Shown piece by piece: positions 5,960-64,000 of a DNA stretch of 64,000 bases; the stretch's first letter is position 1; each line of letters begins with the position of its first letter. The DNA lies in NCBI GenBank assembly GCA_964391455.1, contig CAYMJQ010000003.1, positions 12,435 to 76,434 on the forward strand, given 5' to 3'. A program made the position numbers and the translations under genes. This DNA is from an uncultured Candidatus Saccharibacteria bacterium. GTDB lineage: Bacteria; Patescibacteriota; Minisyncoccia; Phycocordibacterales; DATDWN01. The notes beneath the pieces are model-generated. The model did no database searches. It saw only the letters and a list, made by a program, of their open reading frames with translations, and had not been told where the DNA came from.

Positions 5960-6104
5960 GTAGAATTTATGTACCACTCCAGAATACCAACGACTTCGGT
6001 ATGACAACCTTTTTTTACTTATCCTGTTACTCTGTCCTGAGTCAGGCAAGGTTGGGTCCGAAAACTTAATTTCTACATGCACCATAGAATAAAAATGATA
6101 AAAA

Positions 6105-17324: not shown

Positions 17325-17347
17325 TTGCTCCGGCGGTAGGGATCGAA
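17325..17347. repeat. direct repeat A2: 23-nt copy of tRNA-Asn 3' end (ttgctccggcggtagggatcgaa)
   Basis: A 23/23 match to 17491-17513. Confidence 0.75.
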
Positions 17348-17493
17348 ACTTACAGTTTCAGTACACCTGTTCTGTTTTTTATTTCTAATTGAATAAAAAA
17401 CTATCACAGGTCTTCGATCCCTAACGTAAAAGTCTCCCAGACTTTTACTCCGTCCTTCGCAAATGAAAAATCCCCTTTCGGGGTTTTCATTTG

Positions 17494-17565
17494 CTCCGGC
17501 GGTAGGGATCGAACCTACGACCAATCGATTAACAGTCGATTGCTCTACCACTGAGCTACACCGGA
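17494..17565 (-). tRNA. tRNA-Asn (anticodon GTT)
   Basis: The minus-strand read is TCCGGTGTAGCTCAGTGGTAGAGCAATCGACTGTTAATCGATTGGTCGTAGGTTCGATCCCTACCGCCGGAG. It has a 7-bp acceptor stem, a D-arm AGCTCAGTGGTAGAGC, an anticodon loop CUGUUAA and a T-arm GTAGGTTCGATCCCTAC. CCA is not encoded. Confidence 0.85.
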
Positions 17566-26023: not shown

Positions 26024-26329
26024 CTACCTTCTCTCAGCGAGAGAAAGTGGATTGGCAATCCTTTCTCCAGGAAGGATCGTCTCAGGGTGAATCTTTTCGA
26101 CAAGCTCCAGCATAACGCCGACGGTAGCAGTGCCGAGCTCTGGCTCACAGGAAAGAGCGAGGTCTTTCAGAACTTGCTTTTCCAGACGACCAGCATGACC
26201 AGTCGTGACCTCGATGATGTCTTGTTTCGACATTCCAGTTCTTTCTCCGAGAAGAGTCTTGGAACCGACTCTCACTGCCGCTCGGTGAACAAGAACACCG
26301 AACTCTGCAGAAGCAAACCTATTTGTCAT
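26024..26329 (-). CDS. hypothetical GC-rich 101-aa protein with probable HTH (sigma-70 region-4-like) segment
   Basis: Starts MTNRFASAEF... with GGGAGG 4 nt upstream. The HTH-like segment is LGERTGMSKQDIIEVTTGHAGRLEKQ. It lies directly after the atpC terminator and is GC-richer than its neighbours. Confidence 0.5.
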   Translation of the reverse strand: MTNRFASAEFGVLVHRAAVRVGSKTLLGERTGMSKQDIIEVTTGHAGRLEKQVLKDLALSCEPELGTATVGVMLELVEKIHPETILPGERIANPLSLAERR

Positions 26330-26408
26330 CTTGCCTCCCAAAAGGAACAAAAACCCCGACCATCGGGGCTATTAATAATTAAACCTAATCCAAGTGTATT
26401 TTGCAATA

Positions 26409-35688: not shown

Positions 35689-35739
35689 AAGATTTAGTAT
35701 ACCAGCACAATAAAACTTAACAAAATTAAGCACAAAAAA

Positions 35740-35858
35740 ACTGGTGGGGAGGTTTGCAGTCCCTCCCTAACCAGTCTTGACGAGCCCCTGTGTACTCGTC
35801 GGCCGGCGGGTCTGCCGCCATTAAAGGGTCACGGTGTAGGTGTGACTCATAAAAGTCA
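35740..35858. other. GC-rich structured non-coding element with four hairpins and mutually exclusive gtcac/gtgac/gtcac pairings
   Basis: The hairpins are actggt...accagt (35740-35775), gacgag...ctcgtc (35779-35800), ggcgg...ccgcc (35805-35819) and gtcac...gtgac (35828-35846), with an alternative gtgac...gtcac pairing (35842-35858). The element sits in the divergent region between the exonuclease and the DsbA-like gene. Confidence 0.35.
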
Positions 35859-35993
35859 CCTTCCTTTCCCAAATCGTAAACCTAGGAAATCTAGGCTACT
35901 TCTCAATTATAACATATGTAAAAATAATAATCAACTAATACAAGGTCTGCTTGAAAATTGCATCTAAATCGATTCCCTAGTAGAATAGGCGTT

Positions 35994-39627: not shown

Positions 39628-39645
39628 AAGATAAGGATAACATTT

Positions 39646-39690
39646 TTTGGATAATAAAAAATCCCGGTTCTCGACTGTTGCCGAAAACCG
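39646..39690 (-). terminator. terminator of GC-rich gene (tcccggtt / aaccggga + T-run)
   Basis: An 8-bp stem; the minus-strand read is followed by TTTTTTATTAT. Confidence 0.6.
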
Positions 39691-39726
39691 GGACCTGTGC
39701 TGGGAAGCAAATACAAGAAGATCAAA

Positions 39727-40383
39727 TCAGATCGCTGAGGCGAATTCCTCCGCAGCCGCTCTCACCTCGTCGGCGATCCGCGTATCTTTCTCAGCCTGTT
39801 CGCGACGCCTCTCTTCTGGCGTCTTTTCAACGAGAAGCTCGACTCTCGCCTTCTGCTTCTTGGAAGCCTTGCCGAGCCTGGCAAGCATGCGGGCATTGGC
39901 ATCCCGCGCCTCCTGAAGTCTGGGAGCTTCCTCGATAGAATCGAGAAGATCCCAGTAGAGACGGCTGAGTTCGTTGAGATCGAACTCGTCGAGCAGCCGA
40001 GTGCTCTCAACCGCCTCCTTGAAGAGATTGAATTTCTTCATGAGGCCGTCATAGATGTCCTGGTCCACGAGCTGGGCCACCATGCGGAGCTTGTTCGGGA
40101 AAAAGTTCTCCACCGAGCGAATGGCGTAGAACTTTTGACTGTTCCGGAGTGAACGAAGTGCCTTCACTGCGCCATTGAAGGCAAACAGGAAGGACATCAC
40201 CCCGAACGCCCGGACTGAATCGAGGTAAAGTATCTTGATCTCATCCTTTACCTTGAAATTCATGAATCGGGCTCGAGTCTTGCCACTGTCACCAGTGGCA
40301 ATCTTTACCTCTGCTAGGAAGGCACGGAAAACACCCTCCACCTCCTGCCGAGTCGGGATCTTCTTCACCTTCTTCTTGTCCAT
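39727..40383 (-). CDS. hypothetical 218-aa protein encoded by a strongly GC-rich gene with its own consensus promoter and terminator
   Basis: Starts MDKKKVKKIPTRQ... with GGGAGG 5 nt upstream. The C-terminal half is an E/R/A-rich coiled coil. Codon usage is unlike its neighbours. Confidence 0.55.
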   Translation of the reverse strand: MDKKKVKKIPTRQEVEGVFRAFLAEVKIATGDSGKTRARFMNFKVKDEIKILYLDSVRAFGVMSFLFAFNGAVKALRSLRNSQKFYAIRSVENFFPNKLRMVAQLVDQDIYDGLMKKFNLFKEAVESTRLLDEFDLNELSRLYWDLLDSIEEAPRLQEARDANARMLARLGKASKKQKARVELLVEKTPEERRREQAEKDTRIADEVRAAAEEFASAI

Positions 40384-40427
40384 TGTCGCCTCCCAGCAAT
40401 ACGCCACGAAATGTGACTAAATTGCTC

Positions 40428-40463
40428 TGTTTTGATACTAGCATATTTATCACTATTTGTCAA
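40428..40463 (-). promoter_or_regulatory. sigma70-consensus promoter TTGACA-17-TAGTAT for the GC-rich gene
   Basis: The minus-strand read is TTGACAaatagtgataaatatgcTAGTAT. The spacer 3' end plus the -10 (ATATGCTAGTAT) nearly matches the 54174 promoter (ATATGCTACTAT). Confidence 0.55.
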
Positions 40464-40547
40464 ATAATTTTTTACTTTTTATATAAAAACCCTTATTTTA
40501 AGCCAAAAAATACATGGTGTCGGAACCGATGCACTAGTTTAGTTAAA

Positions 40548-51153: not shown

Positions 51154-51705
51154 TTACTGTCTAATTTCAGTGAAAGTAATACCTCTCGGCAGAGAAAACT
51201 TTGATTTATCTGTATTCCAAGGTTCACAATTATAGTCACCTATTTGTTCAGCATTAAAACTATACTGCCCGCTTGTTCCAAAATTAGAATCTCCTCCTTC
51301 TCCCATATCTACAGGTGCCTTAAATCCAACTCCAGACATCATGCTAGACCAAGTATAAGTAAAACCTCCAGTGACTAAAAGTTCACTATTTATATTCATA
51401 CCAGATACAGATGTAGAAAATGTTCCTCTGATATTTTCACCATCAATATAGACAGTACCTTTGCTCTCAATATTTTCAACATACTGATTGACACTACAAA
51501 CATAAGATCCACCTTGTTTCAAAAAATCATTGAACGACATTTTTTTATTAGATGTGTTCTCTTGTGGTACAGAAGGATTAGGTTCCCCAACTGCAATGGA
51601 GTTTTGTGATTTTTCTGTAGAACTTTCTCTATTATTCATAAAAAAGTAAGCACCTCCCAAAACCACTACCCCGCCCAAAACCCCTGCAATTAATTTATTA
51701 TTCAT
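51154..51705 (-). CDS. hypothetical exported protein
   Basis: An N-terminal TM/signal segment followed by a Ser/Gly-rich, probably beta-rich domain. Confidence 0.45.
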   Translation of the reverse strand: MNNKLIAGVLGGVVVLGGAYFFMNNRESSTEKSQNSIAVGEPNPSVPQENTSNKKMSFNDFLKQGGSYVCSVNQYVENIESKGTVYIDGENIRGTFSTSVSGMNINSELLVTGGFTYTWSSMMSGVGFKAPVDMGEGGDSNFGTSGQYSFNAEQIGDYNCEPWNTDKSKFSLPRGITFTEIRQ

Positions 51706-51720
51706 ATTATTTATTTACTT

Positions 51721-52002
51721 CTAATGTTCCATATTATACCTCCAACCTTCCTTTTTAAGTAGAGCCAGTTTTTTGGATGGACCACCACGATTGTATTCCC
51801 CAACTTTACCATCAGAGAGTATTACCCGATGACATGGAACAGTTTTGTCATGGTTGGCCTTCATGATACTTCCCACGGCTCGACTTGCTCCAGGACTTCC
51901 AGCTCGTGTTGCAACTTGTTTGTATGTTAAAACTTTACCTTGGGGTATTCTCCTTACCACATATTTCACAAATTCAGTAAATGTTTTCTTTTTTATTTTC
52001 AT
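51721..52002 (-). CDS. small methylated-DNA-protein-cysteine methyltransferase (MGMT/Ogt C-domain only)
   Basis: Carries the PCHRV active-site motif and an HTH-like YKQVATRAG segment. Confidence 0.75.
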   Translation of the reverse strand: MKIKKKTFTEFVKYVVRRIPQGKVLTYKQVATRAGSPGASRAVGSIMKANHDKTVPCHRVILSDGKVGEYNRGGPSKKLALLKKEGWRYNMEH

Positions 52003-52049
52003 TTATTTTTTACTAAAAACTAGAAACTAACGACTAGAAACTTGAAAAT

Positions 52050-52556
52050 TTATAATTTTCTACTGTCATATGCCCAATGAAGCACAGCTTGTCTCTGTTT
52101 TCTGTGGCACGAATAATCTCCTGGGCTACATTTTAAAGTTATTTGAACAATATGCCTCTTGATAGCTTTCCAACGCTTTATTTGTCTTTCATCATCACTT
52201 GTCCTTCTACCCATATAGTAACGACAATACCACTCAAACCAACCTCTAGGATCTTGTGCATTTATCCAACCCTTTTTTCTCCAGACAGAAAGTGGTTGAC
52301 TAGCGTTAATTCCAAAGAAATTAATTTTTGGATCATGTTTTTCTTTGCAGAGTTTTACCTTCTTCCACCAATCTTTTGGATATTCATCTGTTTCTGCAAC
52401 ATCTGTCATATATTTTCCACCAAAAACACCGAGCTCTAGCATTTCTTTTGGAGTTAATTCTGGTTTAAAATCAGGATGAAAATTTTTTCCTTTAGGTTCT
52501 GTAAGCTCATACTCATAACTCCCTTGCATCTTATTGTTTACTTTTACTTTTTTCAT
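52050..52556 (-). CDS. hypothetical protein
   Basis: 168 aa, Trp/Lys-rich (GWFEWYCRYYMGRR). No motif recognised. Confidence 0.4.
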   Translation of the reverse strand: MKKVKVNNKMQGSYEYELTEPKGKNFHPDFKPELTPKEMLELGVFGGKYMTDVAETDEYPKDWWKKVKLCKEKHDPKINFFGINASQPLSVWRKKGWINAQDPRGWFEWYCRYYMGRRTSDDERQIKRWKAIKRHIVQITLKCSPGDYSCHRKQRQAVLHWAYDSRKL

Positions 52557-52557
52557 A

Positions 52558-52830
52558 CTACTCAGCTTTATTTAGCTTTTTATATAAAGTTCCAGTAAAA
52601 AATAAAGTTACTACACCAATTATCAATAAATAATATGGATTTTCTCTAAAGAAAGCTATGTCATCTGCAACCAATTCAAATCCATGTAGTATAGAAGCCA
52701 AACCAAATGTAACTAAAAAAGCAAAAAGTAACGGGTATCTTTTTAAAACAGGTTTAGTCCTGTAACCAAACTCATCATGAATACTCTTTATCATTCTTTC
52801 TATTTCAAGAATTGGATCTTTTTCTTGCAT
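52558..52830 (-). CDS. small membrane protein
   Basis: 90 aa with two TM segments. Confidence 0.4.
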   Translation of the reverse strand: MQEKDPILEIERMIKSIHDEFGYRTKPVLKRYPLLFAFLVTFGLASILHGFELVADDIAFFRENPYYLLIIGVVTLFFTGTLYKKLNKAE

Positions 52831-52837
52831 AAATTAT

Positions 52838-53116
52838 TTATTTAATATTAAAGGATACATTAATTGTATCATTTTCATAAACCCCCACACTTTTTCTTAT
52901 GTTATTTTTTAAGCACAATAGATATCCTTTAGATTTCTTATGTGGGAAAAGTGATGTATTCCAACTAACACCTTTTACAAGGGCATTAATTTTTATCATA
53001 CCCTTGCCATACTTTACCCTAATTTCTTCACTTATTTTTACAGGTACATTAACAAAGTGCCACCCACCGACACCCGGCCATAACCACACAGAAGCTTTAA
53101 ATTTATAGACCTTAGA
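52838..53116 (-). CDS. DUF1905-like small protein
   Basis: Starts MSKVYKFKASVWLWPGVGGWHFVNVP... Confidence 0.5.
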   Translation of the reverse strand, partial: SKVYKFKASVWLWPGVGGWHFVNVPVKISEEIRVKYGKGMIKINALVKGVSWNTSLFPHKKSKGYLLCLKNNIRKSVGVYENDTINVSFNIK

Positions 53117-53262
53117 CATGTAAATTATACTGATTTTAATTTCTGAGAATTTTTGCTTGAGTTCGAGACGTGAGTATGGATTGTGACTAAAATGTACAGA
53201 TAGTACATTGCAGGAACAAACGCAAACAAGCAACAAAAAAATCGAGCAAAAAGACTAGAAAT

Positions 53263-53844
53263 TTAGTACTTTCGAATAACTCCACGCACAATAGCCGCCA
53301 CCTTCAAATCATAAGTAGGATATATCGGTGCATAGTTTTTATTGGCTGGTTTTAGATATACAGTATTGCCCTTTTTTTTGAAATACTTCATGGTCCAACC
53401 CCCATCAACTTCTGCAATAACTATATCACCATCTTTTGGATCCCCTCGTCTTTCAACCAAAACTAAATCTCCTTCACGTATACCTTCATCTATCATGGAG
53501 TCCCCTTTTACTTCAAGTAAATATGTAGAGTTTTTGTTTCTCCCTATAAGATACTCATCTATACTTAAAGATTCTGTGTCATCTTGGTCCACCGTTGTTG
53601 GAATACCAGCTTCTACAAGTCCCAAAAGTGGTGTTTCCCCAAATATTTTTAAAGGAGTGAGTTTGCCGTTACTGTCTTTATCTATAATCTCATCTGCAAC
53701 CATTTTATTTATGAGTTTATAGACTGCATTTTTGGATTTAAATCCAAGTAGTTGCATTATTTCTTTATAGCCAGGCATACGCCTATTGTTTCTATAAAAA
53801 GAAAGTATTTTTTCTTTGTATATTGAATATCTTTCGTCAGACAT
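53263..53844 (-). CDS. lexA: LexA repressor
   Basis: An N-terminal wHTH, an Ala-Gly cleavage site (VEAGIP), the S24 Ser motif GDSM and a Lys motif YFKKKGNTVYLKP. Confidence 0.85.
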   Translation of the reverse strand: MSDERYSIYKEKILSFYRNNRRMPGYKEIMQLLGFKSKNAVYKLINKMVADEIIDKDSNGKLTPLKIFGETPLLGLVEAGIPTTVDQDDTESLSIDEYLIGRNKNSTYLLEVKGDSMIDEGIREGDLVLVERRGDPKDGDIVIAEVDGGWTMKYFKKKGNTVYLKPANKNYAPIYPTYDLKVAAIVRGVIRKY

Positions 53845-53848
53845 ATCT

Positions 53849-54040
53849 TTAAATTAATGAAAATCTTCTAAAACTCAAACTTGATCTCCTGTGTTTCAAA
53901 ACTTCAAGTCTTTTCAAAATGTTTTTGTGTTCTCTGGCCTCTCTTGTGTAAGACAAACCTCTAACTATTTTTCTATCAATAATATCATTTAAAACTTGTA
54001 ATTGTACCCTAAGTGTTTTTTCTAAATTTAATTGTGTCAT
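53849..54040 (-). CDS. small basic 63-aa ORF between SOS box and lexA (uncertain)
   Basis: The ORF is intact and ends 4 nt before the lexA ATG, but it lacks a clear SD. Confidence 0.3.
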   Translation of the reverse strand: MTQLNLEKTLRVQLQVLNDIIDRKIVRGLSYTREAREHKNILKRLEVLKHRRSSLSFRRFSLI

Positions 54041-54100
54041 ATTTTTTGTAAATTTAATTTATTAATTACTAAACCCTGGTTTACTTATAAATATATATTA

Positions 54101-54116
54101 GTGAACTATGGTTCAC
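54101..54116. promoter_or_regulatory. LexA operator of Cheo-box type (GTGAACTATGGTTCAC; GAAC-N4-GTTC)
   Basis: A perfect 6-4-6 palindrome matching the low-GC Gram-positive SOS-box consensus CGAACRNRYGTTCG, upstream of the lexA operon. Confidence 0.6.
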
Positions 54117-54173
54117 CAGTCAATAAAGACAAAACTAAAACTGTGGAAAACTAATTTTTAATATTTTAAAAAC

Positions 54174-54202
54174 TTGACATTTAACTTGATATATGCTACT
54201 AT
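54174..54202 (+). promoter_or_regulatory. sigma70-consensus promoter TTGACA-17-TACTAT of GC-rich cassette
   Basis: TTGACAtttaacttgatatatgcTACTAT. AGGAGG lies 7 nt before the ATG at 54223. Confidence 0.5.
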
Positions 54203-54222
54203 TAAGGATAGGAGGATAACAC

Positions 54223-54441
54223 ATGCCGAGTCCGAACTCGACCCGCTCCCGGCTTTGCAACCGGGAGAAAACCCGCGGTTTCCAGACCGCGGGCCACCAC
54301 ACGGTGAATATGTTTGGCGCGACGCCGACCATGTTCACGGACCAGCCGTGGCGGGACCCTCGGGTCCCCCGGCTGAAGAGCTTCAGCTCGGACAGGAGCT
54401 ACCTGCTCCCGTCCGAGTACAAGATCGAGGTGAGCCACTAG
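54223..54441 (+). CDS. 72-codon ORF in extremely GC-rich cassette; a protein-coding versus structured-RNA role is unresolved
   Basis: The product MPSPNSTRSRLCNREKTRGF...YKIEVSH has a strong SD. The region also carries six perfect hairpins, including a 14-bp stem that holds the stop codon in its loop. Confidence 0.35.
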   Translation: MPSPNSTRSRLCNREKTRGFQTAGHHTVNMFGATPTMFTDQPWRDPRVPRLKSFSSDRSYLLPSEYKIEVSH

Positions 54442-54459
54442 GCTCACCTCGATCACGCA

Positions 54460-54498
54460 GGCCGACCCACTTCAGAGAGCGGGTCGGCCTTTTCATTT
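54460..54498 (+). terminator. intrinsic terminator (ggccgaccc ... gggtcggcc + tttt)
   Basis: A 9-bp GC stem with a 12-nt loop and a T-run. It is preceded by a second perfect hairpin at 54423-54454. Confidence 0.65.
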
Positions 54499-54499
54499 G

Positions 54500-55159
54500 C
54501 TACCTAATTAAATCTTGCAATACAGGATAAACTCTTTCTGCAATTTTTTCATAACCTAAATCATTTGGGTGTATCTGATCTGACATATACCTATCATCCA
54601 ACAAAAGACCGTCTAAAACATTCGACACAAAAGCGACATTGTATCTTTTACTTAATTCTTCAAAATCAGAATCAAAATTATCCCTCAAAAGTCCACCCCT
54701 AACACCAAGAAGTAAAACCGTACTACCTCTTTGATGAATACTCTCTATAATTTTTCCTAAGTTATCAAAAGTTGTTTGTCTTGGAATTCTCCTGAGATAA
54801 TCATTACCACCAAGCAAAACTATAACCACTTTTGGATTATATTTATCTAAATCTGCTAATCTATTTAATCCATCGGTTGTAGTATTACCTGATACTCCCA
54901 AATTTATAATTGGTCTACCTAACCTTTTGGATAAAACCGAAATAAAATTGGTAGATTCTGAAGACGCTCCAACCCCTTGGATCAAACTGTCTCCAAAAGC
55001 TATTATATCTACCCCATCGGATGGATAATTCGTATAGCTATCTTTATTAAAAAAGAAGTATAAGAATATACCAATTAATCCTAAAAAAATAAAAACTATT
55101 GATATTAAATTTGTTTTATTTTCTAAAATACTTTTCATTAAACAAATAATAACACACAA
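54500..55159 (-). CDS. SGNH/GDSL-family hydrolase with N-terminal TM anchor
   Basis: Carries the IIAFGDSLIQG motif. Confidence 0.75.
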   Translation of the reverse strand: MCVIICLMKSILENKTNLISIVFIFLGLIGIFLYFFFNKDSYTNYPSDGVDIIAFGDSLIQGVGASSESTNFISVLSKRLGRPIINLGVSGNTTTDGLNRLADLDKYNPKVVIVLLGGNDYLRRIPRQTTFDNLGKIIESIHQRGSTVLLLGVRGGLLRDNFDSDFEELSKRYNVAFVSNVLDGLLLDDRYMSDQIHPNDLGYEKIAERVYPVLQDLIR

Positions 55160-55189
55160 AGAATCCGTGAAGGTAACACCTTCACGGAT

Positions 55190-55774
55190 TCACTCAAGAA
55201 TAGAAAAGTGGTACCAGTCAAAAATCATTATGTGAAAAACTAACTGTGACCACTCCTCTGTTGCTTCAATCAGATTCTGTTCCTCAAAAAACAAAAGTTC
55301 TTGCCTCAACCAATCCAACTCTGATAAAGAAAGTCCAATCTTTCCAATATCAATAGTTGAACCAGTGTTGTGTGTGGATGCCCTATCTCCAGATATCGGA
55401 GCAGCATTTGAATTTACCTTCTGAAGTTCTGCTTGATAGACCGTAGTCCTCACAGCAGAATTGATTTGAAACATTCTACCGAATGCATTGATGAAACGTA
55501 TTGCCAAATCATCAATGTACTTAGCGGTGGTGTATCTTACGAAACGAAAATCTTTTGGGATTCGTTCGTCGATTAAGACAGACTCTGGAATAGGAACAAG
55601 AATCCCGTTTCTTTTCAGCTCTTCCAAGTCGTCCTCATTATGGATTCTTGGAAGATTAAGAATCTTCGCTACTTCATTTTGCTTCTGCAAAGATTCTCTT
55701 GAACCAACAAGACTCTGAGAAAAGACTGTTTGATTAAAAAGAAACAGAAAACAAATGGTAAAAAACACATACAT
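55190..55774 (-). CDS. hypothetical exported protein
   Basis: Has an N-terminal signal-like segment. The promoter (TATAAT), RBS (AGGAGG) and first 9 codons lie inside the 65-bp repeat. Confidence 0.5.
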   Translation of the reverse strand: MYVFFTICFLFLFNQTVFSQSLVGSRESLQKQNEVAKILNLPRIHNEDDLEELKRNGILVPIPESVLIDERIPKDFRFVRYTTAKYIDDLAIRFINAFGRMFQINSAVRTTVYQAELQKVNSNAAPISGDRASTHNTGSTIDIGKIGLSLSELDWLRQELLFFEEQNLIEATEEWSQLVFHIMIFDWYHFSILE

Positions 55775-55811
55775 CTCACACCTCCTTTCTATAAATATTA
55801 TAGAAAAAATA
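55747..55811. repeat. 65-bp direct repeat copy 1 (promoter -10, RBS and start of the 55190-55774 gene)
   Basis: Identical to 56680-56744. Confidence 0.8.
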
Positions 55812-55935
55812 TATATTATTTGAAAGTTAATTTTTTAGTTTTTATTATTTTTTAAGATATTGAATAAAATTCAGACCCATACAATGTAATGACATAATTT
55901 CTTTTTGTATTTTATGATTTAGTTGTTCTACTGTG

Positions 55936-56556
55936 TTATTTGACCTTAAAAGTATTATAAATCTGCTCGAGCTCTTCTTTCATTCCAACTGGTATTTTCT
56001 CTTTTATTTTATCACTACCAAAAAGTGTATATGCGTGACTTTCATCATCTAAAACAGATTCGTGATAACCCCCCATAGAACGTAGCCATTCTTTGATTAA
56101 ATTTAGATCGTATTTCTTTAAAACCTCATCAACTTGTTTTTTATACTCTGGTCTTGTGTAGTAGAGTCCATGAGCTGTTTCGTGTTTTAAAGTTTTTTGC
56201 ACTCTCTCTGTATTTATATCGCCATATAAACCGATAATATAAAAAGGGTGTTCATCTCCTTTAAAATATTCTAGAAATATTTTTTCTTCGTCACTCAGTG
56301 GGTCGAAATCGCCAGCAAAAAAAGGGTTGAGTATATGAGATGGAATATTGAAACCAGACCAGTCTGTGTAATAGGTAAAATCCCCTTTTATTTCTGAATA
56401 CCATTTTTTATATTCATCTAGAGTAAATATTTTCCCTTTAAACTCCGGAGACTCATAGTGTTCCTGAAACCGCAAAAAAGTAGAAGTAAGTTCTACTTGA
56501 TTCTCAAATTGTAGTAAATATGTCCTATCTGCAACCTTAATCTTTTTTATATTCAT
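55936..56556 (-). CDS. hypothetical protein
   Basis: 206 aa with no motif recognised. Confidence 0.45.
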   Translation of the reverse strand: MNIKKIKVADRTYLLQFENQVELTSTFLRFQEHYESPEFKGKIFTLDEYKKWYSEIKGDFTYYTDWSGFNIPSHILNPFFAGDFDPLSDEEKIFLEYFKGDEHPFYIIGLYGDINTERVQKTLKHETAHGLYYTRPEYKKQVDEVLKKYDLNLIKEWLRSMGGYHESVLDDESHAYTLFGSDKIKEKIPVGMKEELEQIYNTFKVK

Positions 56557-56679
56557 TTTAAAAATTTATAGTTAATCTCGAGATCAATCAACTTACCTAC
56601 TCACAACCGTTAGAAAGCAATTCAACATCTTGATTCTACATCTCTGATCCAACATTAAAACATCATCCTTAAAAATATT

Positions 56680-56744
56680 GAAAACAAATGGTAAAAAACA
56701 CATACATCTCACACCTCCTTTCTATAAATATTATAGAAAAAATA
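56680..56744. repeat. 65-bp direct repeat copy 2 (duplicated promoter/RBS/start fragment giving a 12-codon mini-ORF MYVFFTICFQYF)
   Basis: Identical to 55747-55811 and located about 125 nt upstream of the 55936-56556 gene start. Confidence 0.8.
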
Positions 56745-56799
56745 AGAGAAAACCGCTATCTGGGAAAAATCTCAAATAGCGGGGGTTGTCTTTCTTTAC

Positions 56800-57282
56800 T
56801 TAAAGATGTTGGTCTACTTTCTCGACAAAGCGATGCTTTAAGTAAAGTATTCTAGCTGTGGCTGGACGAGTTCCCAGTGCAATGGGAATCGAAAGATCCT
56901 TGTCTTTCGCCCAAACAGAAAGGAAGAAATCTGCGTGATGGACTTGAGTAGAAACAATTACCACGTCGTTTCTTATCCCAACTCTATCAACTAGACTCAC
57001 TGCCTCTTGAGCGTACGAGGAATTGTCCAGACAAGAAGCCCTGTGCCCGAAACAGTTGTGCTGGCTAAACCTGGAAACACCCAGACAAGAAGCTAGAATC
57101 AAACTAGTCTCTTCTGCTCTTATGGAAGGAGAAGAGAGAATGGCGATACGAGAACCTTTTAGCTTTAGCATAAGAATTCTCGCCAAAGCAAAAACGTTAC
57201 TCCTACCTCTATCTGTCAAACTCCCATTGCTACGGTTGTATTCTCCATTGCAAACAACGATTAATTTTTCCAACATGTACAC
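56800..57282 (-). CDS. histidine-phosphatase-superfamily-like protein (SixA-like) lacking the canonical RHG catalytic motif
   Basis: Carries VVCNGE in place of RHGE. A TTGACA-17-TAATCT promoter and GGGAGG RBS are present. The gene is GC-richer than its flanks. Confidence 0.45.
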   Translation of the reverse strand: MYMLEKLIVVCNGEYNRSNGSLTDRGRSNVFALARILMLKLKGSRIAILSSPSIRAEETSLILASCLGVSRFSQHNCFGHRASCLDNSSYAQEAVSLVDRVGIRNDVVIVSTQVHHADFFLSVWAKDKDLSIPIALGTRPATARILYLKHRFVEKVDQHL

Positions 57283-57332
57283 CTCCCAAGAAAAAGATTA
57301 GGTTTTTAAAAAAACTTTGTCAAATTTATATT

Positions 57333-57365
57333 GAAAAAGGTCGGGGGCAAATCCCCGACCTTTTT
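57333..57365 (-). terminator. terminator (ggtcgggg gcaaat ccccgacc + T-run)
   Basis: An 8-bp GC stem. Confidence 0.6.
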
Positions 57366-57372
57366 GAAGAAC

Positions 57373-57876
57373 CTAGATTTTCAAAACATACCACTGAACA
57401 GAAAGTTCCCTACGAAGCCTACTCTGTCTCTCTGCCCAAATCGGAAATCCAAGAGACATTCTGCTAAAGAACTCAGATCTCTTACTTGAACTAGTATTAC
57501 GAGAAAGAGTTCTAAAAAATCTAGCTCCCTCTCCATGATACCAATTCAAATTGTGACGCCCTCTCATCTGGTCAGCGAAAAACCCAGACAGCAGGAGAAT
57601 TTGACAAGCAACTGCTTCACAAACCTCAGGGTCAGAAACAATGTCTCCAACCTGAGAATTCGGCAAAATATGGTTGTCAAACACCTGAGACAAATTCCTT
57701 GGACACGGAATAGTCTCAGTTGAGTCACAGGAAACTTGAGCAAAGTGTGCCAGAACACTTGCGTTATACAAGAGTTCATCTTCTCTTACTTCACCTTGAG
57801 AAACATCTTTCAGTCCCCCAAAGAAAAACTGTAGAGCTTGCCTGTGGTTTACAGAGAGAGGTTCTGCAAAAGACAT
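57373..57876 (-). CDS. hypothetical protein, GC-richer than flanks
   Basis: Starts MSFAEPLSVNH... with GGAGGG upstream. No motif recognised. Confidence 0.4.
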   Translation of the reverse strand: MSFAEPLSVNHRQALQFFFGGLKDVSQGEVREDELLYNASVLAHFAQVSCDSTETIPCPRNLSQVFDNHILPNSQVGDIVSDPEVCEAVACQILLLSGFFADQMRGRHNLNWYHGEGARFFRTLSRNTSSSKRSEFFSRMSLGFPIWAERQSRLRRELSVQWYVLKI

Positions 57877-57896
57877 ACACCCTCCTACGATAGATA

Positions 57897-58859
57897 TTAT
57901 AACTTTATAACAAATCTGCAATCTTTATGTTCTATATCTTTTATAAATTTTTGACAAAAATCATTCCTTTCTTCCTCCTTCATCAAATCTGGAGCAAATG
58001 CTTTCATATTAAATGGAAAAAGCTCAAATACAGTTTCGGTTTTTCTAAAATCCACTTTTACCCCAAGACCTACTGTCGTGTCGCCAAAATTTTGATCAAA
58101 AACAAAGTTTCCTAATGAGTAAAATATTGCCTTACCTTTATAGACCTCCATATTTTGTACAACATGTGGATGATGCCCAAAAATAATATCCGCTCCAGAA
58201 TCTATAAGTTTGTAAGCGATATTTCTTTGATTCAAATCATTTTTTAATTCATACTCCCTACCCCAATGAATATGTAAAACTACTAAATCATTTTCTGATT
58301 TTAATTTTTGAATTAATGGATAAAATCTAGAAAGAGGTATTACTTGAATCGTTTCATCTATTCCCAAAAATGCGACTTTTTTCCCTGAAATTTCTTTTAC
58401 TAAATAACTTCGTTCTAAATTACTATCTCCTATATATTCAATACTAGAAGAAGCAAGGTATTTTTTCGTATCATCTAATCCCTTCCTATAACAATCATAC
58501 GTATGATTATTTGCCAGATTAACCATGTTAACTCCAATACTCTCAAGTCTGTTTATTGTATCAGGCGAAAACTGAAAATTATAAGCTTTTTGCTGACAAT
58601 CACTCCTTCTCATATTAGTGATTGGGCCTTCCAGGTTAACAACAAAGACATTATATTCACCGAATATGTTTAAATCTTTTTTAATATACTCAAAAGGATC
58701 TCTATCTCGATTCTCTATTATGTTTCTAACACCTCTATCGAACATCACATCTCCAAAACTTAGAATTTTTACACTTGGTTCTTTTTCAAAAACAAAGTTA
58801 TAAGAAATCACAAATACTAAACATAGAACAAGTATTATTAAAAAATAATATTTTTTCAT
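57897..58859 (-). CDS. capA: CapA-family metallophosphatase (poly-gamma-glutamate biosynthesis CapA-like)
   Basis: Carries GDVMFDR, NLANNH, GIDE, HWGREYE and GHHPH motifs. Confidence 0.75.
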   Translation of the reverse strand: MKKYYFLIILVLCLVFVISYNFVFEKEPSVKILSFGDVMFDRGVRNIIENRDRDPFEYIKKDLNIFGEYNVFVVNLEGPITNMRRSDCQQKAYNFQFSPDTINRLESIGVNMVNLANNHTYDCYRKGLDDTKKYLASSSIEYIGDSNLERSYLVKEISGKKVAFLGIDETIQVIPLSRFYPLIQKLKSENDLVVLHIHWGREYELKNDLNQRNIAYKLIDSGADIIFGHHPHVVQNMEVYKGKAIFYSLGNFVFDQNFGDTTVGLGVKVDFRKTETVFELFPFNMKAFAPDLMKEEERNDFCQKFIKDIEHKDCRFVIKL

Positions 58860-58965
58860 TTATAAACAATTTTAACATGAATAATAAAAGAAAATGTAAT
58901 CAAGACTATTTAAACATTAAAAAAGAAAAGCACACCTAGAAAGGATGTGCTCCTCTTGGTGCGCC

Positions 58966-59253
58966 CTAGCTGGCAAAGACACTTGTCTCATTTTTGCCAG
59001 TGTTTAGATAGTTTTCATATTCTTGCCAAAACTTTTTCAAAGCAGTTTTAGCATTTTTTATTGCTTCATTATACCTTTCATTTTTATACATTTCCATAGC
59101 AACTACAGAAAAAGCCTTAACACTGGTGGAAGGTGTAAAACCCTTCATGCCACCACCAACTTCAAAAGCTTTTTCTAGGCTAAGAATTTGAATTCTGGCT
59201 CTGGTTTTTAAACTCAGCCTTGACATAGAAGAACCCCCAAAAATAAAATACAT
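58966..59253 (-). CDS. hypothetical small protein
   Basis: 95 aa. The start is uncertain (possibly MSRLSL). Confidence 0.3.
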   Translation of the reverse strand: MYFIFGGSSMSRLSLKTRARIQILSLEKAFEVGGGMKGFTPSTSVKAFSVVAMEMYKNERYNEAIKNAKTALKKFWQEYENYLNTGKNETSVFAS

Positions 59254-59286
59254 TTAAAATAATGTTATGTCAATTACAAATTGACG

Positions 59287-60972
59287 CTACAAAAATAGTC
59301 TGGCGATTCTTATTTTTAAATAACTTGGTTTCTTTTTCTTTCTTAATAAGTAATTATAAACCGGAGATAAATTCTTTGTACCCAAATCTTCAAATGCATC
59401 TAAAATATCATCTAATTCACTTCTCTTTAATTCTCTTTTTAAATAATCCACATCAGGACACTTATTATCACTTTTTAAATCTTCAATATGAGAAATGATA
59501 GTCTCTTCTTTGACGCCACGAGCTTTGGCAATATCTTTTAATGGCCTTTGCTCTTGAAGCATTTCTAAAGTAATATCTGTGGTACTCTTTTTCATCTCTT
59601 TCTCTTTTCTTTTTATTTTAATTTTTTCTTCGGGCTCTATTTTTTTAATCCATTGTTTTTGCTTCTCTAAAATCTCACTTTTTTTCATAGATTTTAGGTC
59701 TTCTACTGCTTCTTCTGATTTATCTCTAAAATCTTTATCTGTCTTTAGAACCTCTGAAGAGACTTCAAGTGACATCTGGTTAAATCCTAAAAGTTTTATA
59801 CCCTCCAATGTTCTCACCCGAGAAAGCGCGACATAACCCATGCCCTTTACAAAAGATTTTGATAAATCTACCTCCATAGCATCCAAAGACATCCCCTGAC
59901 TTTTATGAACCGTTATGGCCCAAGCAAGACGAAGTGGCAGTTGAGTTATTTCTGCTTTAACCTTGCCGTCCTCTTCTATCCTCCAAGACTGTGGCGTCAC
60001 AGACAACTCCAAACCACTGTTTGTAAGAACAACAGGAAAACCATATGAATCAAAATCTTTAACAACCCCCAATGTGCCATTTACATACAATCCTTCTGGA
60101 TGATTTTTGGTAAACATAACCCTAGCTCCAATTTTTAACTCAAGCTCTTCTGGAGAAAGACAACTTTTTTTTAAGGTTTCAGATAATCCTGTAGAACCAG
60201 AACTAGTCATATAAAATTTTTTAGATTTTTCCCCTATAAGATCCAAATGTTTTTTATTAACCACATCTACATCTATATTATGAGTATATAGTCTTGTGTA
60301 TTCGCCAACACTTTCCAAATCTTGATTGAATCTAGACTTCAAAAGATCTAAAGTTCTACTAGAGACTTTATCTTCGCGAATCTGATTCAATATAGAAAGA
60401 TAAGTATTGTCTTTTTGTCTATGTTGTTCCGAAAGATAACATATTGTAAATTTTGCATTTCTAAAACTCTCTGATTTATATACAAATTCTAATTCTTGTT
60501 CTGCATCAAAATAACTCAAGTTTTTTAATCGAGTAACCGGTGGTAATTGAAAAAAATCTCCACATAAAATAATTTGCATACCGCCAAATGGTTTTTCATC
60601 TCTCTTCATCTGTCTGCAAATCCAATCAATCATATCTAGACGATAATTATGAAGCATAGATACTTCATCAATGATTAAAACTTTTGTTTTTTGAAACCTT
60701 TTATACAAATACTGTCTTTCCATTAAATCCTCTATATCATAGTCAGTTAGAGTATCTTTTATTCCAAGCCCCGACCAAGAGTGTATGGTCATACCGCCTA
60801 TATGTGTAGCAGCTATTCCTGTGGAAGCAGTCACCGCAACATCCACTCCATGATTTTTCAAATAATTAACATATTCATTTATTACATAAGTTTTCCCACT
60901 ACCAGCAGGACCGGTTAAAAATACATTCTTACCCATTTTTAGAATATCCAAAGCTTGTGATTGAAGCATCAA
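59287..60972 (-). CDS. Pif1/RecD-like superfamily-1 DNA helicase with C-terminal HTH-like extension
   Basis: Carries GPAGSGKTY Walker A, DEVSML Walker B and CGDFFQLPPV motifs. Confidence 0.8.
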   Translation of the reverse strand: MMLQSQALDILKMGKNVFLTGPAGSGKTYVINEYVNYLKNHGVDVAVTASTGIAATHIGGMTIHSWSGLGIKDTLTDYDIEDLMERQYLYKRFQKTKVLIIDEVSMLHNYRLDMIDWICRQMKRDEKPFGGMQIILCGDFFQLPPVTRLKNLSYFDAEQELEFVYKSESFRNAKFTICYLSEQHRQKDNTYLSILNQIREDKVSSRTLDLLKSRFNQDLESVGEYTRLYTHNIDVDVVNKKHLDLIGEKSKKFYMTSSGSTGLSETLKKSCLSPEELELKIGARVMFTKNHPEGLYVNGTLGVVKDFDSYGFPVVLTNSGLELSVTPQSWRIEEDGKVKAEITQLPLRLAWAITVHKSQGMSLDAMEVDLSKSFVKGMGYVALSRVRTLEGIKLLGFNQMSLEVSSEVLKTDKDFRDKSEEAVEDLKSMKKSEILEKQKQWIKKIEPEEKIKIKRKEKEMKKSTTDITLEMLQEQRPLKDIAKARGVKEETIISHIEDLKSDNKCPDVDYLKRELKRSELDDILDAFEDLGTKNLSPVYNYLLRKKKKPSYLKIRIARLFL

Positions 60973-61031
60973 AACATTGTATCAGTATGTATCAAAAAAC
61001 TATCAATTGACATACTGTGATTTTTGATATT

Positions 61032-61688
61032 CTATTTATTTTTTAACTTCCATTTTTCAATTTCTGTATGATTTCCAGAAAGCAAAACTTTTGGGACTCT
61101 ATATTTTTTACCTTTGTATTCAAAAAATTCGGGTCTGGTATAAACCTCATGACTAGAGACTCTATTTTCTTCAAGAGAGTTAAAATTCCCTAAAACACCT
61201 TGTATTTGTCTGGAAACACAGTCTATATATATCATCGCTGGTAATTCACCTCCAGTTAAAATAAAAGGCCCAATAGAAACTTCTTCCATTTTAAAGACTT
61301 TTTTAACCCTAGCGTCTACACCTTCATATCTACCGCAAACCAAAATAATATCTTTTATTTGATTTTTATTTTTTTTTGTAATCTTTTTTGCATATTCATT
61401 TGTAAATTCTTTACCTCCAGGAGTAAAAAATACAATTTTGTATTTTTTTTTACCTATTTTTTTTAAAGATTTCTCGATTGCCTTGATAACAGGCAATGCT
61501 TGTATAACCATACCAGGTCCACCACTATATGGTTTCTGATCAACTCGTTTCCATTTATCATCCGAATAATCCCTAGGGTTATAAAAATAGACTTTTATTT
61601 TCTTATCCTCTATTGCCCTAGAAATAATAGACTCATTTAGATATGAATCAAAAGCACTCGGAAACAAAGTTATGATATGAAAATTCAT
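61032..61688 (-). CDS. trmD: tRNA (guanine37-N1)-methyltransferase
   Basis: A SPOUT-fold TrmD sequence. Confidence 0.9.
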   Translation of the reverse strand: MNFHIITLFPSAFDSYLNESIISRAIEDKKIKVYFYNPRDYSDDKWKRVDQKPYSGGPGMVIQALPVIKAIEKSLKKIGKKKYKIVFFTPGGKEFTNEYAKKITKKNKNQIKDIILVCGRYEGVDARVKKVFKMEEVSIGPFILTGGELPAMIYIDCVSRQIQGVLGNFNSLEENRVSSHEVYTRPEFFEYKGKKYRVPKVLLSGNHTEIEKWKLKNK

Positions 61689-61753
61689 ATTTTATTTATA
61701 ACACAAAAAATATACACAGTAAAGGGCGTAAGATTATTACGCCCTTACACAGT

Positions 61754-61927
61754 CTATGCCACCCTATTCTTCGGTGGAATTTCCTCCCTCTTGATATTTT
61801 TTACCACCTGAGAAGCCAGGTGCCAATTTGATATTGGCTCCTGACACATATTGCATTTGTTGTCTCCCTTGAAGGCCTGCCAAGCTCCGCAGTGTGGCTT
61901 ATCACAGCATATCCAACGTTCAGACAT
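61754..61927 (-). CDS. 57-aa Cys-rich zinc-ribbon-like small protein (not in supplied ORF track; below its length cutoff)
   Basis: Own translation: MSERWICCDKPHCGAWQAFKGDNKCNMCQEPISNWHLASQVVKNIKREEIPPKNRVA. GGAGGG lies 8 nt before the ATG. The gene sits between the KH-protein terminator and trmD and is GC-richer than its flanks. Confidence 0.5.
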   Translation of the reverse strand: MSERWICCDKPHCGAWQAFKGDNKCNMCQEPISNWHLASQVVKNIKREEIPPKNRVA

Positions 61928-61961
61928 TGTGATACCCTCCTAAAAAATTATAACCCTAAAC

Positions 61962-61995
61962 AAAAAAGAACTCTAGCTTCTAGAGTTCTTTTTTG
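61962..61995. terminator. bidirectional terminator (gaactctag ctt ctagagttc + T-run)
   Basis: A 9-bp stem flanked by A6 and T6. Confidence 0.65.
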
Positions 61996-62015
61996 TTATT
62001 TTAATAACTACAAAA

Positions 62016-62330
62016 CTATAGTTTTAAGTCATTCATAGCTTCATCTAAAGATTTTGTAGAACTTTGCTTAACTTCACTTATAATTCCTTCTGGTTCGTTA
62101 ATCTTTAAATTAACTCTAGAATTATTTTTCATACCGACAACTCTAAGCAACGTCCTTATCGCTTTAGCAGTATTGCCTTCGCGACCTATTATCTTACCCA
62201 TATCGTCTTTATTTACATCCAAGGTCATTAAAACACCCATCTCATCTACAGTCCTAGTTATTTTCACGTCTTCTGGTTTTTCAACCAATGCTTTCACAAC
62301 AAATTCTAAAAATTTTACATCATTTTCCAT
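62016..62330 (-). CDS. KH-domain RNA-binding protein (YlqC-like) of the rpsP-trmD cluster
   Basis: Carries the GKIIGREGNTAKAIRTL KH motif. Confidence 0.8.
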   Translation of the reverse strand: MENDVKFLEFVVKALVEKPEDVKITRTVDEMGVLMTLDVNKDDMGKIIGREGNTAKAIRTLLRVVGMKNNSRVNLKINEPEGIISEVKQSSTKSLDEAMNDLKL

Positions 62331-62405
62331 AGTATCAATTCAGTTAATTTTAAAGTCTTACAGTCTCAATTTTATAATCAAAAAATACGGTCGTCAAACA
62401 ACTTA

Positions 62406-62885
62406 TTAAACAGTTGTAGTTTCTGTTGAGTTTTCTGCATCAGAAGTTTCTGTTACAGCCTCCGATGTAGTCTCTGCAACTGGAGATTCCAGAGGAGCTT
62501 CTACAACTGGAGTTTCTGGCGTAATTTCTGTTGTTGATGCCTCTGTCGGTGTTGGCTCTGGTGGAACAGAAGAGACTGGAGCTTCCACCGGTGGAATATC
62601 TTTAACTATTGCTTTTTTAAGTGGAAGTACGTTTACTTTTTTACCAGAAACAACCTTTTTATCCACAAGTATATTGTGAACTGTACCTGAAACTTGAGCC
62701 CCTTTACTCATCCAATATTCTACCCTATCTTTTTTTATTTCAGACTTTTCTCCTCTTCTTGCATCATAACTTCCGAGTGATTCTAGATATTTACCACTTT
62801 TTGTTGAGTTTTTTGAATCAGTCAAAACAAGCCTAAAAACTGGCTCATGCTTTCTCCCTACTCTCTGTAGTCTTATTTTTAACAT
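62406..62885 (-). CDS. rpsP: 30S ribosomal protein S16 with Thr/Glu/Pro-rich C-terminal extension
   Basis: Starts MLKIRLQRVGRKHEPVFRLVL... Confidence 0.9.
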   Translation of the reverse strand: MLKIRLQRVGRKHEPVFRLVLTDSKNSTKSGKYLESLGSYDARRGEKSEIKKDRVEYWMSKGAQVSGTVHNILVDKKVVSGKKVNVLPLKKAIVKDIPPVEAPVSSVPPEPTPTEASTTEITPETPVVEAPLESPVAETTSEAVTETSDAENSTETTTV

Positions 62886-62953
62886 GGGCTATATACTAAC
62901 AAAAGAAACCAAAATGGTCAAATAACTCAATATTTGCTAGTATATCTCTACTT

Positions 62954-64000
62954 ATGAAAAAAGACTCTTTTATAGGTCCTATAATAGTAAACACTAAAGG
63001 TGTTGGTTTTTTTGACCCAAAACCAGAGGAAAAAAACAGAGAAAATAGTATAGAAATTCAACCTCAATTTTTAAATAAAGCTTTAAATGGAGATACCGTA
63101 GAAGTCGTATTAACCGGTGAAAAAATAAAAAACAGAGTCCAGGGTAAAGTTGTAAAAATAATAAAACGGGCAAAAGAAGAATTCGTCGGTGTAATAACAA
63201 AAAAAAACGGTAAAACTTTTATTATTCCTGACGACCAAAGGCTTTACGTAGATATTTTCTTAAAAGAGGATACTAAAGCCCCTGAGGGTGAAAAAGTGTT
63301 AGTAAAGATAATTGATTGGGACACTCTTTCTGGAGAAATTATAAAAGTAATAGGTAAAAAAGGTGAAAACAATACAGAAATGGAATCAATTATCCTGGAA
63401 AAAGGTTTTAGGATAGAATTCCCCGAAGCAGTACAGAAAGAAGCCTTACAGATTAAATCCAAATCAGAAACAGAGGTTTCTGCGGAAATTAAAAATCGTC
63501 GAGATATGCGAAATGTCACAACAATGACAATTGATCCTTTTGACGCTAAAGATTTTGATGATGCAATATCTTTTGTAGACCTTGGCAACAACCAATATGA
63601 AATTGGAGTTCATATAGCCGATGTATCACATTACGTTACGCCTGGTTCTGAATTAGACAAAGAAGCAGAAAAAAGAGGTCTCTCTGTTTACCTTGTCGAC
63701 AGAACCATACCAATGCTTCCAGAAATACTTTCCAATGATCTCTGTTCTCTAAATCCAAATGAAGATAAATTTACTTTTTCAGCAGTATTTAAAATAACCA
63801 ATGAAGGAGAAGTGTTGGAAGAATGGTTTGGAAGAACAGTAATACATTCTGACAAAAGATTTACTTATGAAGATGCAAACGAAGTTATACTTGGAAAACA
63901 AGACGGACCTTTTCAAACTGAACTTAGAAAATTAAACGAAATAGCAAAAAACCTTGAGAAAAAGAAATCTCAGGATGGTGCAATGAGTTTTGATACTGAA
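62954..64000 (+). CDS. rnr: ribonuclease R (RNB family), runs off window end
   Basis: Own translation from the ATG at 62954 is open to 64000. It shows N-terminal cold-shock-like domains and the start of the RNB domain (MTIDPFDAKDFDDAIS). It is absent from the track because no stop lies in the window. Confidence 0.8.
   Translation, partial: MKKDSFIGPIIVNTKGVGFFDPKPEEKNRENSIEIQPQFLNKALNGDTVEVVLTGEKIKNRVQGKVVKIIKRAKEEFVGVITKKNGKTFIIPDDQRLYVDIFLKEDTKAPEGEKVLVKIIDWDTLSGEIIKVIGKKGENNTEMESIILEKGFRIEFPEAVQKEALQIKSKSETEVSAEIKNRRDMRNVTTMTIDPFDAKDFDDAISFVDLGNNQYEIGVHIADVSHYVTPGSELDKEAEKRGLSVYLVDRTIPMLPEILSNDLCSLNPNEDKFTFSAVFKITNEGEVLEEWFGRTVIHSDKRFTYEDANEVILGKQDGPFQTELRKLNEIAKNLEKKKSQDGAMSFDTE

Follow-up and report, generated by a model that had tools for sequence, protein, structure and literature searches.

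The closest described counterparts of the gene analysed here are those for YneA, SosA, ChiZ/Rv2719c and DivS of Gram-positive bacteria – small, lineage-specific open reading frames (ORFs) that diverge from lexA across an intergenic GAAC-N4-GTTC box. We know of no report of extreme enrichment in GC, or in GC at third codon positions (GC3), for any of these four genes. Small proteins are also known to act directly with LexA-type repressors: gp7 of phage GIL01 is a small LexA co-regulator, and ddrR of Acinetobacter is encoded divergently from umuDAb. A study of DdrR describes the protein as a small corepressor needed for the LexA-like UmuDAb to bind the SOS box (PMC11332147). Synteny divergent from lexA has itself served as the discovery criterion for SosA/YneA-type division inhibitors (PMC6851548). 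Here we describe a 72-codon gene in such a position, within a 64,000-nt stretch of contig CAYMJQ010000003.1 (hereafter the window; all coordinates refer to it). This gene, with its promoter and terminator (hereafter the cassette), differs from yneA, sosA, chiZ and divS in lacking a membrane anchor or LysM domain, a LexA box of its own and any sequence similarity to them, and in having a promoter that looks constitutive. Its product falls in the ~50-80 aa size range of DdrR and gp7 but has no homology to either; a DdrR-type protein-protein contact would suit a disordered, motif-bearing peptide.

Two further classes of known element resemble the cassette in other respects. RNAIII/hld, SgrS/SgrT and SR1/SR1P are likewise short and heavily structured, with their own promoter and terminator and an encoded small peptide, but the cassette differs in having no conserved fold and no known target-pairing region, and in the dominance of its coding signal. 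Acquired islets and ‘morons’ share deviant GC content and codon usage, a private promoter and terminator and an orphan protein; the cassette differs in its conserved orthologous position, in a GC boundary that falls at the start codon and in the lack of donor or mobility signatures. Taken together, our analyses indicate that the cassette is probably a genuine single-gene unit for a basic, fast-evolving small protein, with a GC content maintained through selection on its nucleotides or mRNA and without repression by LexA.

A single-gene unit written in rare codons

The cassette is a single-gene transcription unit with its own promoter, a very short leader, a strong Shine-Dalgarno sequence and an intrinsic terminator. 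A consensus scan identified a sigma-70-type promoter on the + strand (54174-54202) that matches 10 of 12 consensus positions, with a -35 element TTGACA (54174-54179), a 17-nt spacer whose TGC end supplies an extended -10 TG, and a -10 element TACTAT (54197-54202). The Shine-Dalgarno sequence AGGAGG (54210-54215) lies 7 nt before the ATG at 54223, from which a 72-aa coding gene (MPSPNSTRSRLCNREKTRGFQTAGHHTVNMFGATPTMFTDQPWRDPRVPRLKSFSSDRSYLLPSEYKIEVSH; 54223-54441, + strand) runs through 72 codons to a TAG at 54439-54441. The intrinsic terminator (54459-54494, + strand) has 13-nt arms with one mismatch (54459-54471 and 54478-54490, 92% complementary), a TCAGAG loop and TTTTC after the 3' arm. 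A sequence-only reading of this DNA had described a self-contained expression cassette divergent from the lexA operon, with promoter, Shine-Dalgarno sequence, 72-codon ORF, hairpins and terminator; we found every one of these within 54174-54494, and lexA does lie on the - strand. The terminator, described there as a 9-bp GC hairpin, is present, but its arms are longer, at 13 nt with TTTT following.

The cassette is compositionally the most deviant locus in the window, as the sequence-only reading had proposed, and also the most strongly folded. Positions 54223-54490 are 65% GC, compared with 33.4% across the whole window, and the highest GC value of any 150-nt segment (0.68) falls here. GC contents at the three codon positions of the coding sequence (CDS) are 0.51, 0.52 and 0.90 – a periodicity that points to coding and is not expected of a structured RNA. 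The gene is written in the rarest codons of its genome: an index modelled on the codon adaptation index (CAI-like) is 0.18, versus 0.70 across 45 reference genes with a minimum of 0.51, and seven of its eight arginine codons are CGG (five) or CGC (two), each of which accounts for ~1% of the genome's arginine codons. Both composition and codon usage resemble those of an ordinary gene in a ~65% GC organism. Translational codon adaptation was dropped as an account of the high GC3, as core genes of the window – RNA polymerase-size ORFs, a ribosomal-protein-like ORF and large central ORFs – have GC3 near 0.2.

Folding energy follows the same pattern. The cassette reaches -0.513 kcal/mol/nt, the lowest value in the window, versus -0.157 +/- 0.053 for 288 other 219-nt tiles. 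Its transcript has a minimum free energy (MFE) of -164 kcal/mol and forms a chain of eight local hairpins, with z-scores relative to dinucleotide shuffles of -10.9 for the + strand and -8.9 for the - strand.

The cassette ORF is the sole + strand gene within 51154-63591, and + strand GC skew is negative over the whole window. These two observations suggest that the cassette is probably transcribed head-on to replication – an orientation that could help drive fast evolution.

A small-protein family and its GC-rich genes

When 1.84 billion representative proteins were scanned exhaustively with HMMER, three relatives of the 72-aa product emerged (P0001-P0003, E 6e-8 to 5e-5). Profile searches extended the database relatives to eight (P0001-P0008), and searching individual loci in six frames brought in L003, L005, L006, L019, L143 and L145. 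Scanning DNA for the lexA-promoter pattern turned up 95 loci but just two new family members, and a back-translated metagenome scan gave 76 stretches, 0 of them confirmed as members. The resulting family has 12 distinct members of 61-73 aa. They share a core motif, [EQ]PW[KR]DPxVPRL, and a C-terminus of the form P-x-EYK[VI]; in an alignment of the eight clearest members, M1, S6, P42, W43, P46, L51 and Y66 are invariant. Two N-terminal types occur, MSxQxSRxVELG...AIVAMG and MPxLxSxRxRL..GRSTGFQ, and the window protein joins the second of these to the C-terminus of the first type. A possible mimic of the LexA cleavage site in ‘AIVAMGAV’ was dropped, as the window's own protein does not carry this motif.

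Several features of this family indicate that the ORF is truly coding. The reading frame is open in 12/12 members, GC3 is the highest of the three codon positions in every one (range 0.57-0.95), and indels come in multiples of three. A Shine-Dalgarno sequence (AAGGAG or AGGAGG) precedes the start by 6-9 nt in all members. An AT-rich promoter of the form TTGACA / TGn-TAnnnT is likewise present in 12/12: a regular-expression scan for TTGACA-(16-17)-TAnnnT matched 11, with the -10 element ending 17-24 nt before the start codon, and the twelfth member, L085, has a longer leader and a CTTGACA seen by eye. Of the small protein, precursor peptide and structured small RNA (sRNA) previously offered as identities for the cassette, coding periodicity and the conserved motif single out the small protein.

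Neither the peptide nor the family matched any entry in Pfam, NCBIfam, PADLOC or PHROGs, and a profile search of the PDB returned noise only (E = 1). The earlier statement that the peptide has no recognisable motif therefore holds for these five collections, but not for the unnamed family itself, which has a clear core motif. The window protein is basic and hydrophilic (11 K+R versus 6 D+E; grand average of hydropathy -0.95) and has no membrane-spanning stretch, the maximum 15-residue Kyte-Doolittle mean being 0.07. An AlphaFold model has low confidence (pLDDT 55.9, pTM 0.19), and the protein is likely disordered.

The gene has also escaped annotation. The true 72-aa product is missing from a collection of 15 billion proteins, and exact-product look-ups for the cassette ORF, LexA and the TTG-start product of the neighbouring GDSL gene found none, only the ATG-start GDSL product being on record. 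On an identical contig from the Logan assemblies, an automated call placed a 78-aa ORF on the antisense strand (L001 1339-1575, equivalent to window 54202-54438, - strand). We rejected an antisense 84-aa ORF as a real gene; its GC content at first codon positions, 0.84, merely mirrors the sense GC3.

The contigs that carry related LexA genes belong to Parcubacteria, labelled Zambryskibacteria, Paceibacterota and similar, and the small-protein family appears confined to a narrow clade within this group. Orthologs with a matching promoter, Shine-Dalgarno spacing, GC-rich body and neighbourhood are found in related Parcubacteria, in at least 11 genomes or contigs besides this one. The gene is directly divergent from an operon made up of a 63-aa ORF and lexA in the window and in L003, L086, L087-L091, L143 and L145; in L082, L189 and L006 one gene lies between the small gene and this operon, all within ~2 kb. 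In two further loci, from sister species, the lexA-divergent slot, on the - strand of each, is occupied by an unrelated GC-enriched ORF behind a promoter of the same type as the cassette's: a 62-aa ORF in L002 (5425-5613, GC3 0.73), with a terminator homologous to that in the window, and a 73-aa ORF in L004 (5404-5625, GC3 0.68).

GC richness is shared by the orthologs and has sharp limits. Across family members, GC content is 23-44% in the 80 nt upstream, 54-72% in the CDS (GC3 0.57-0.95), 48-67% in the 3' untranslated region and terminator, and 23-49% in the next 100 nt. The GC-rich block thus comprises the translated region and terminator and begins at the ATG rather than at an insertion junction, with an AT-rich promoter and 5' untranslated region, in host genomes of 33-44% GC. 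The synonymous differences at conserved residues are mostly third-position exchanges between G and C (8 versus 2 in the L085/L086 comparison, 6 versus 0 in L082/L087), which indicates that synonymous sites have turned over while staying G or C. Combined with the GC-rich body of all members, this turnover suggests that GC richness is an old, maintained trait rather than a sign of recent import. From these comparisons, the cassette gene appears to be resident in these genomes.

Hairpins in the window and in the homologs

The MFE structure contains six consecutive near-perfect hairpins inside the CDS (54227-54417, + strand), at 54227-54240, 54246-54267, 54272-54293, 54302-54339, 54342-54374 and 54385-54417. 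Three of the four internal stems listed in the sequence-only reading (cccgg/ccggg, cccgcgg/ccgcggg and ggaccc/gggtcc) form in this structure; the remaining one, gctgaa/ttcagc, is a genuine palindrome in the sequence but is outcompeted by alternative pairings. The CDS has four perfect Watson-Crick hairpins of >=6 bp, whereas the expectation over 1000 synonymous-codon shuffles is 0.95 (P = 0.013). The CDS has a folding z-score of -8.1 relative to dinucleotide shuffles and of -3.9 relative to synonymous-codon shuffles, by which latter measure ordinary genes of the window score -0.5 to -2.9.

A perfect 14-bp hairpin with the loop ACTA spans the stop codon (54423-54454, + strand; arms 54423-54436 and 54441-54454, 100% complementary). 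Its loop had been thought to hold the TAG; the stem is indeed perfect, but only the T and A lie in the loop, and the G pairs as the first base of the 3' arm. The position of this hairpin is unusual relative to other positions in the gene (empirical P = 0.006). Stop-spanning stems elsewhere are found only in L005 (8 bp) and in the unrelated ORF of L002 (7 bp), and when the window is left out the combined P is 0.12, which is not significant. We also considered, and dropped, an ArfA-like model in which cleavage of a hairpin at the ORF's 3' end leaves a non-stop mRNA, because a strong stop hairpin occurs only in the window, L005 and L002.

Most homologs do not share this propensity to fold. Relative to synonymous shuffles, z-scores are -2.4 for L006 and about -2.5 for L005, and range from -1.1 to +0.7 for L003, L082, L085, L086 and L087 – and these five, of the seven homologs, are no more stably folded than shuffles. 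An RNAalifold consensus of seven members reaches -10.6 kcal/mol, with a positive covariation term (+1.8), and keeps just two structures: the terminator and a hairpin from the codons of W-x-D-P-x-V-P, in which the GAC and GTC codons are reverse complements. When the window structure is applied to a seven-sequence alignment, 59% of its positions are paired overall and 42-50% in helices 3-5. The terminator hairpin (helix 10) behaves differently, with 83% paired in the orthologs and three pairs changed on both sides in compensatory fashion, and homologous terminators are present in L002 and L085.

Searches for a known RNA were also negative. Rfam gave no match at the gathering threshold and chance-level ones only at E <= 10, ARAGORN found in the window only a tRNA-Asn located elsewhere, and no loop motif recurs among the hairpins. 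Perfect hairpins of >=6 bp are enriched in L085 and L189 as well and absent from five other members; the same excess is seen in the window's other GC-rich gene, of 218 aa (8 versus 2.3, P = 0.001). The row of perfect hairpins thus looks like a lineage-specific overlay, a property of GC-rich genes at the level of the lineage that arises through mutation or selection. Across the family, these comparisons argue against any specific conserved RNA fold and suggest that the hairpins are mostly private to the window's genome.

Regulation and possible roles at the lexA locus

In the window, lexA (Peptidase_S24; 53263-53844, - strand) lies behind a 63-aa ORF (53849-54040, - strand) that opens the operon. 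Related loci with gene calls carry, in the same place, a gene that is likewise exactly 63 aa long. The window's 63-aa ORF had no match in Pfam, NCBIfam, PADLOC or PHROGs and appears to be an uncharacterised partner of LexA in the operon.

The operon's promoter, TTGACT-17-TAATAT (54095-54123, - strand), holds the LexA box GAACTATGGTTC in its spacer (54103-54114). Placement of a LexA box between the -35 and -10 elements of a lexA promoter is classical for autoregulation. No other box of this kind occurs in the window, and both this box and the -35 element of the lexA promoter are invariant in six species. The sequence-only reading had placed the cassette ~60 bp from a perfect Cheo-type LexA box; the box is indeed 57 nt upstream of the cassette -35 and ~100 nt upstream of the cassette's predicted start. 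This nearness need not imply control by LexA, given that the box lies inside the lexA promoter. Consistent with independence from LexA, the copies in L082, L189 and L006, which are separated from lexA, keep their promoter and have no GAAC-N4-GTTC box upstream. The position of the box and these boxless copies together suggest that the cassette gene is not itself directly repressed by LexA.

A second conserved element occupies the intergenic region. The motif AAAACTGTGGAAAAC (54137-54151; no strand assigned) has the consensus AAAACTGTGGAAAAG in an alignment of relatives; its spacing from the lexA promoter is fixed, and its spacing from the cassette promoter varies. Written as AAAACTGTGGAAAA(C/G), the motif lies upstream of the lexA-operon promoter and has a core that is invariant in six species, and AAACTGTGGAAAA occurs as a single exact copy in the window. 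The motif might serve as an UP element or as the site of a regulator.

We weighed four other explanations against this evidence. Mis-assembly or a chimera with contaminant reads, raised as a possibility in the sequence-only reading, would explain an abrupt switch in composition inside ~300 nt; we give it practically no weight, since an independent Logan contig (SRR15237806, 2016 bp) is 100% identical to the window across 53761-55776, spanning both junctions, and the same architecture recurs in many independent metagenomes. The proposal that the cassette is a recently acquired foreign module – the capture, behind a native promoter, of a GC-rich ORF whose source was a mobile element or high-GC donor – draws on its composition and codon usage, on other GC-rich orphan ORFs in the window such as 39727-40407, and on the unrelated GC-enriched ORFs in the lexA-divergent slots of L002 and L004. 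It is largely refuted and we consider it very improbable: orthologs with the same promoter, leader and terminator stand in the same neighbourhood in several species and are GC-rich rather than AT-rich, and G or C has been kept through synonymous turnover. Among the 1.84 billion proteins no homolog was found in a donor lineage or anywhere else outside these Parcubacteria contexts, and blastn and tblastn searches of phages and plasmids together with a scan of viral contigs gave no match. Flanking direct repeats and mobility genes are also absent around the cassette, the neighbours of which are LexA, a GDSL hydrolase and DUF5715.

A function at the RNA level, as a dual-function or regulatory structured RNA (a protein sponge, an antisense RNA or insulator, or a processing substrate) with the ORF secondary, would fit the extreme folding z-scores on both strands, the excess of perfect hairpins over synonymous shuffles and the stems across the stop codon in the window (14 bp), L005 (8 bp) and L002 (7 bp). 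Also in its favour are hairpins 2-3, which the closest subfamily keeps in part, and a ratio of nonsynonymous to synonymous substitution rates (dN/dS) near 1 with constrained synonymous sites. Every member, however, shows strong period-3 composition in the ORF frame, with amino-acid motifs conserved amid synonymous change. With no consensus structure, five of seven homologs folding no better than shuffles and neither an Rfam match nor a recurrent loop motif, we regard this explanation as quite unlikely; the stronger suggestion of a structured sRNA with an incidental ORF is rejected, given the GC3 of 0.90, the conserved amino-acid motifs and hairpins that are not conserved across homologs. An SOS-linked small effector – a checkpoint factor like YneA, SosA, ChiZ or DivS, or a modulator of LexA or RecA like DdrR or GIL01 gp7, in either case induced or active in the SOS response – is unlikely too, if a little less so. 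Synteny divergent from lexA is conserved, a Cheo-type box lies in the shared intergenic region in many species, and known inhibitors are, like this family, small, lineage-specific and poorly conserved. Yet the only LexA box sits in the spacer of the lexA promoter, the near-consensus cassette promoter looks constitutive, and the protein has no membrane-spanning stretch, no LysM match and no homology to known inhibitors.

We therefore favour a resident gene for a small protein, with GC content held at the nucleotide or mRNA level, as the probable explanation. Selection of this kind would hold the GC richness against the AT pressure of the genome and would yield a compact, nuclease-resistant message that is abundant, long-lived and slowly translated. 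The small, probably disordered product would act on a partner via short linear motifs; given the conserved synteny, this partner may belong to the DNA-damage module of LexA, RecA and cell division. [quoted passage not shown] If true, this would offer a clean natural case of long-term selection on synonymous sites overriding genomic composition, together with a new protein family of the SOS locus.

Several points weigh against the favoured explanation. The suggested link to the SOS module is drawn from synteny only, and the cassette promoter carries no LexA box, which makes this link weaker. Selection on GC content is deduced from the comparisons above, and repeated recombination between GC-rich alleles could contribute. 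The family is tiny, and with ~12 distinct members the statistics are thin. Whole-gene NG86 dN/dS is 0.5-1.2, which means that classical purifying selection on the protein is weak and leaves room for a function at the RNA level; the same values could mean fast protein evolution combined with constrained synonymous sites. The nearest subfamily (window, L005, L006 and L143) partly keeps hairpins 2-3, with some two-sided changes: helices 2-3 are 64% paired versus 19-49% in slid controls, a comparison of four sequences, one of which itself provided the structure. Considered together with the unrelated ORFs in L002 and L004, the dN/dS values suggest that the lexA-divergent locus is a hot spot for small-gene turnover.

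Other GC-rich or orphan elements were observed elsewhere in the window, all on the - strand where a strand is given. The 218-aa gene mentioned above is a second GC-rich orphan (39645-40470; ORF 39727-40383/40407, 218-226 aa) with a GC content of 55%, a GC3 of 0.69 and a CAI-like index of 0.27. Its promoter, TTGACA-17-TAGTAT, has a spacer that ends in ATATGC as in the cassette promoter, it has its own terminator, and its product has no counterpart in Pfam, NCBIfam, PADLOC or PHROG. Between two hairpin terminators lies a 108-aa orphan ORF with an intermediate GC content (26024-26350, CAI-like 0.46), and further GC-elevated orphans are found at 16915-17265 and 61754-61927. Two structured elements were also identified. 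A GC-rich, RNA-gene-like element of ~150 nt (6100-6295, z = -5.4) combines a long closing helix with an intrinsic terminator after it; it matched no Rfam family even at E <= 1 and may be an undescribed CPR non-coding RNA. The other, at 35735-35905, is GC-rich, ends in a terminator (z = -4.6) and has no match in Rfam. The 3' 26 nt of the tRNA-Asn gene (17493-17565) are duplicated (17325-17350 and 17491-17516, 166 nt apart, 96% identity), with the copy adjoining the orphan ORF at 16915-17265, which is itself GC-richer; the duplication may mark what is left of an integrated element's att site.

Our analysis has implications for how such genes are recognised. The antisense miscall and the missing product suggest that genes of this kind are systematically under-reported in annotation, and the history of the cassette as outlined here makes compositional ‘foreignness’ by itself a poor sign of recent transfer. 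A GC3 near 0.9 in genomes of 33-44% GC, maintained through turnover between G and C, singles the family out as an unusually clear candidate for selection that acts on synonymous sites or mRNA properties. The family is uncharacterised, with an unusual conserved compositional signature. In other phyla the lexA-divergent slot has been a repeated source of checkpoint factors; the cassette brings an unnamed small-protein family to this locus in CPR bacteria, the DNA-damage biology of which is almost unexplored.

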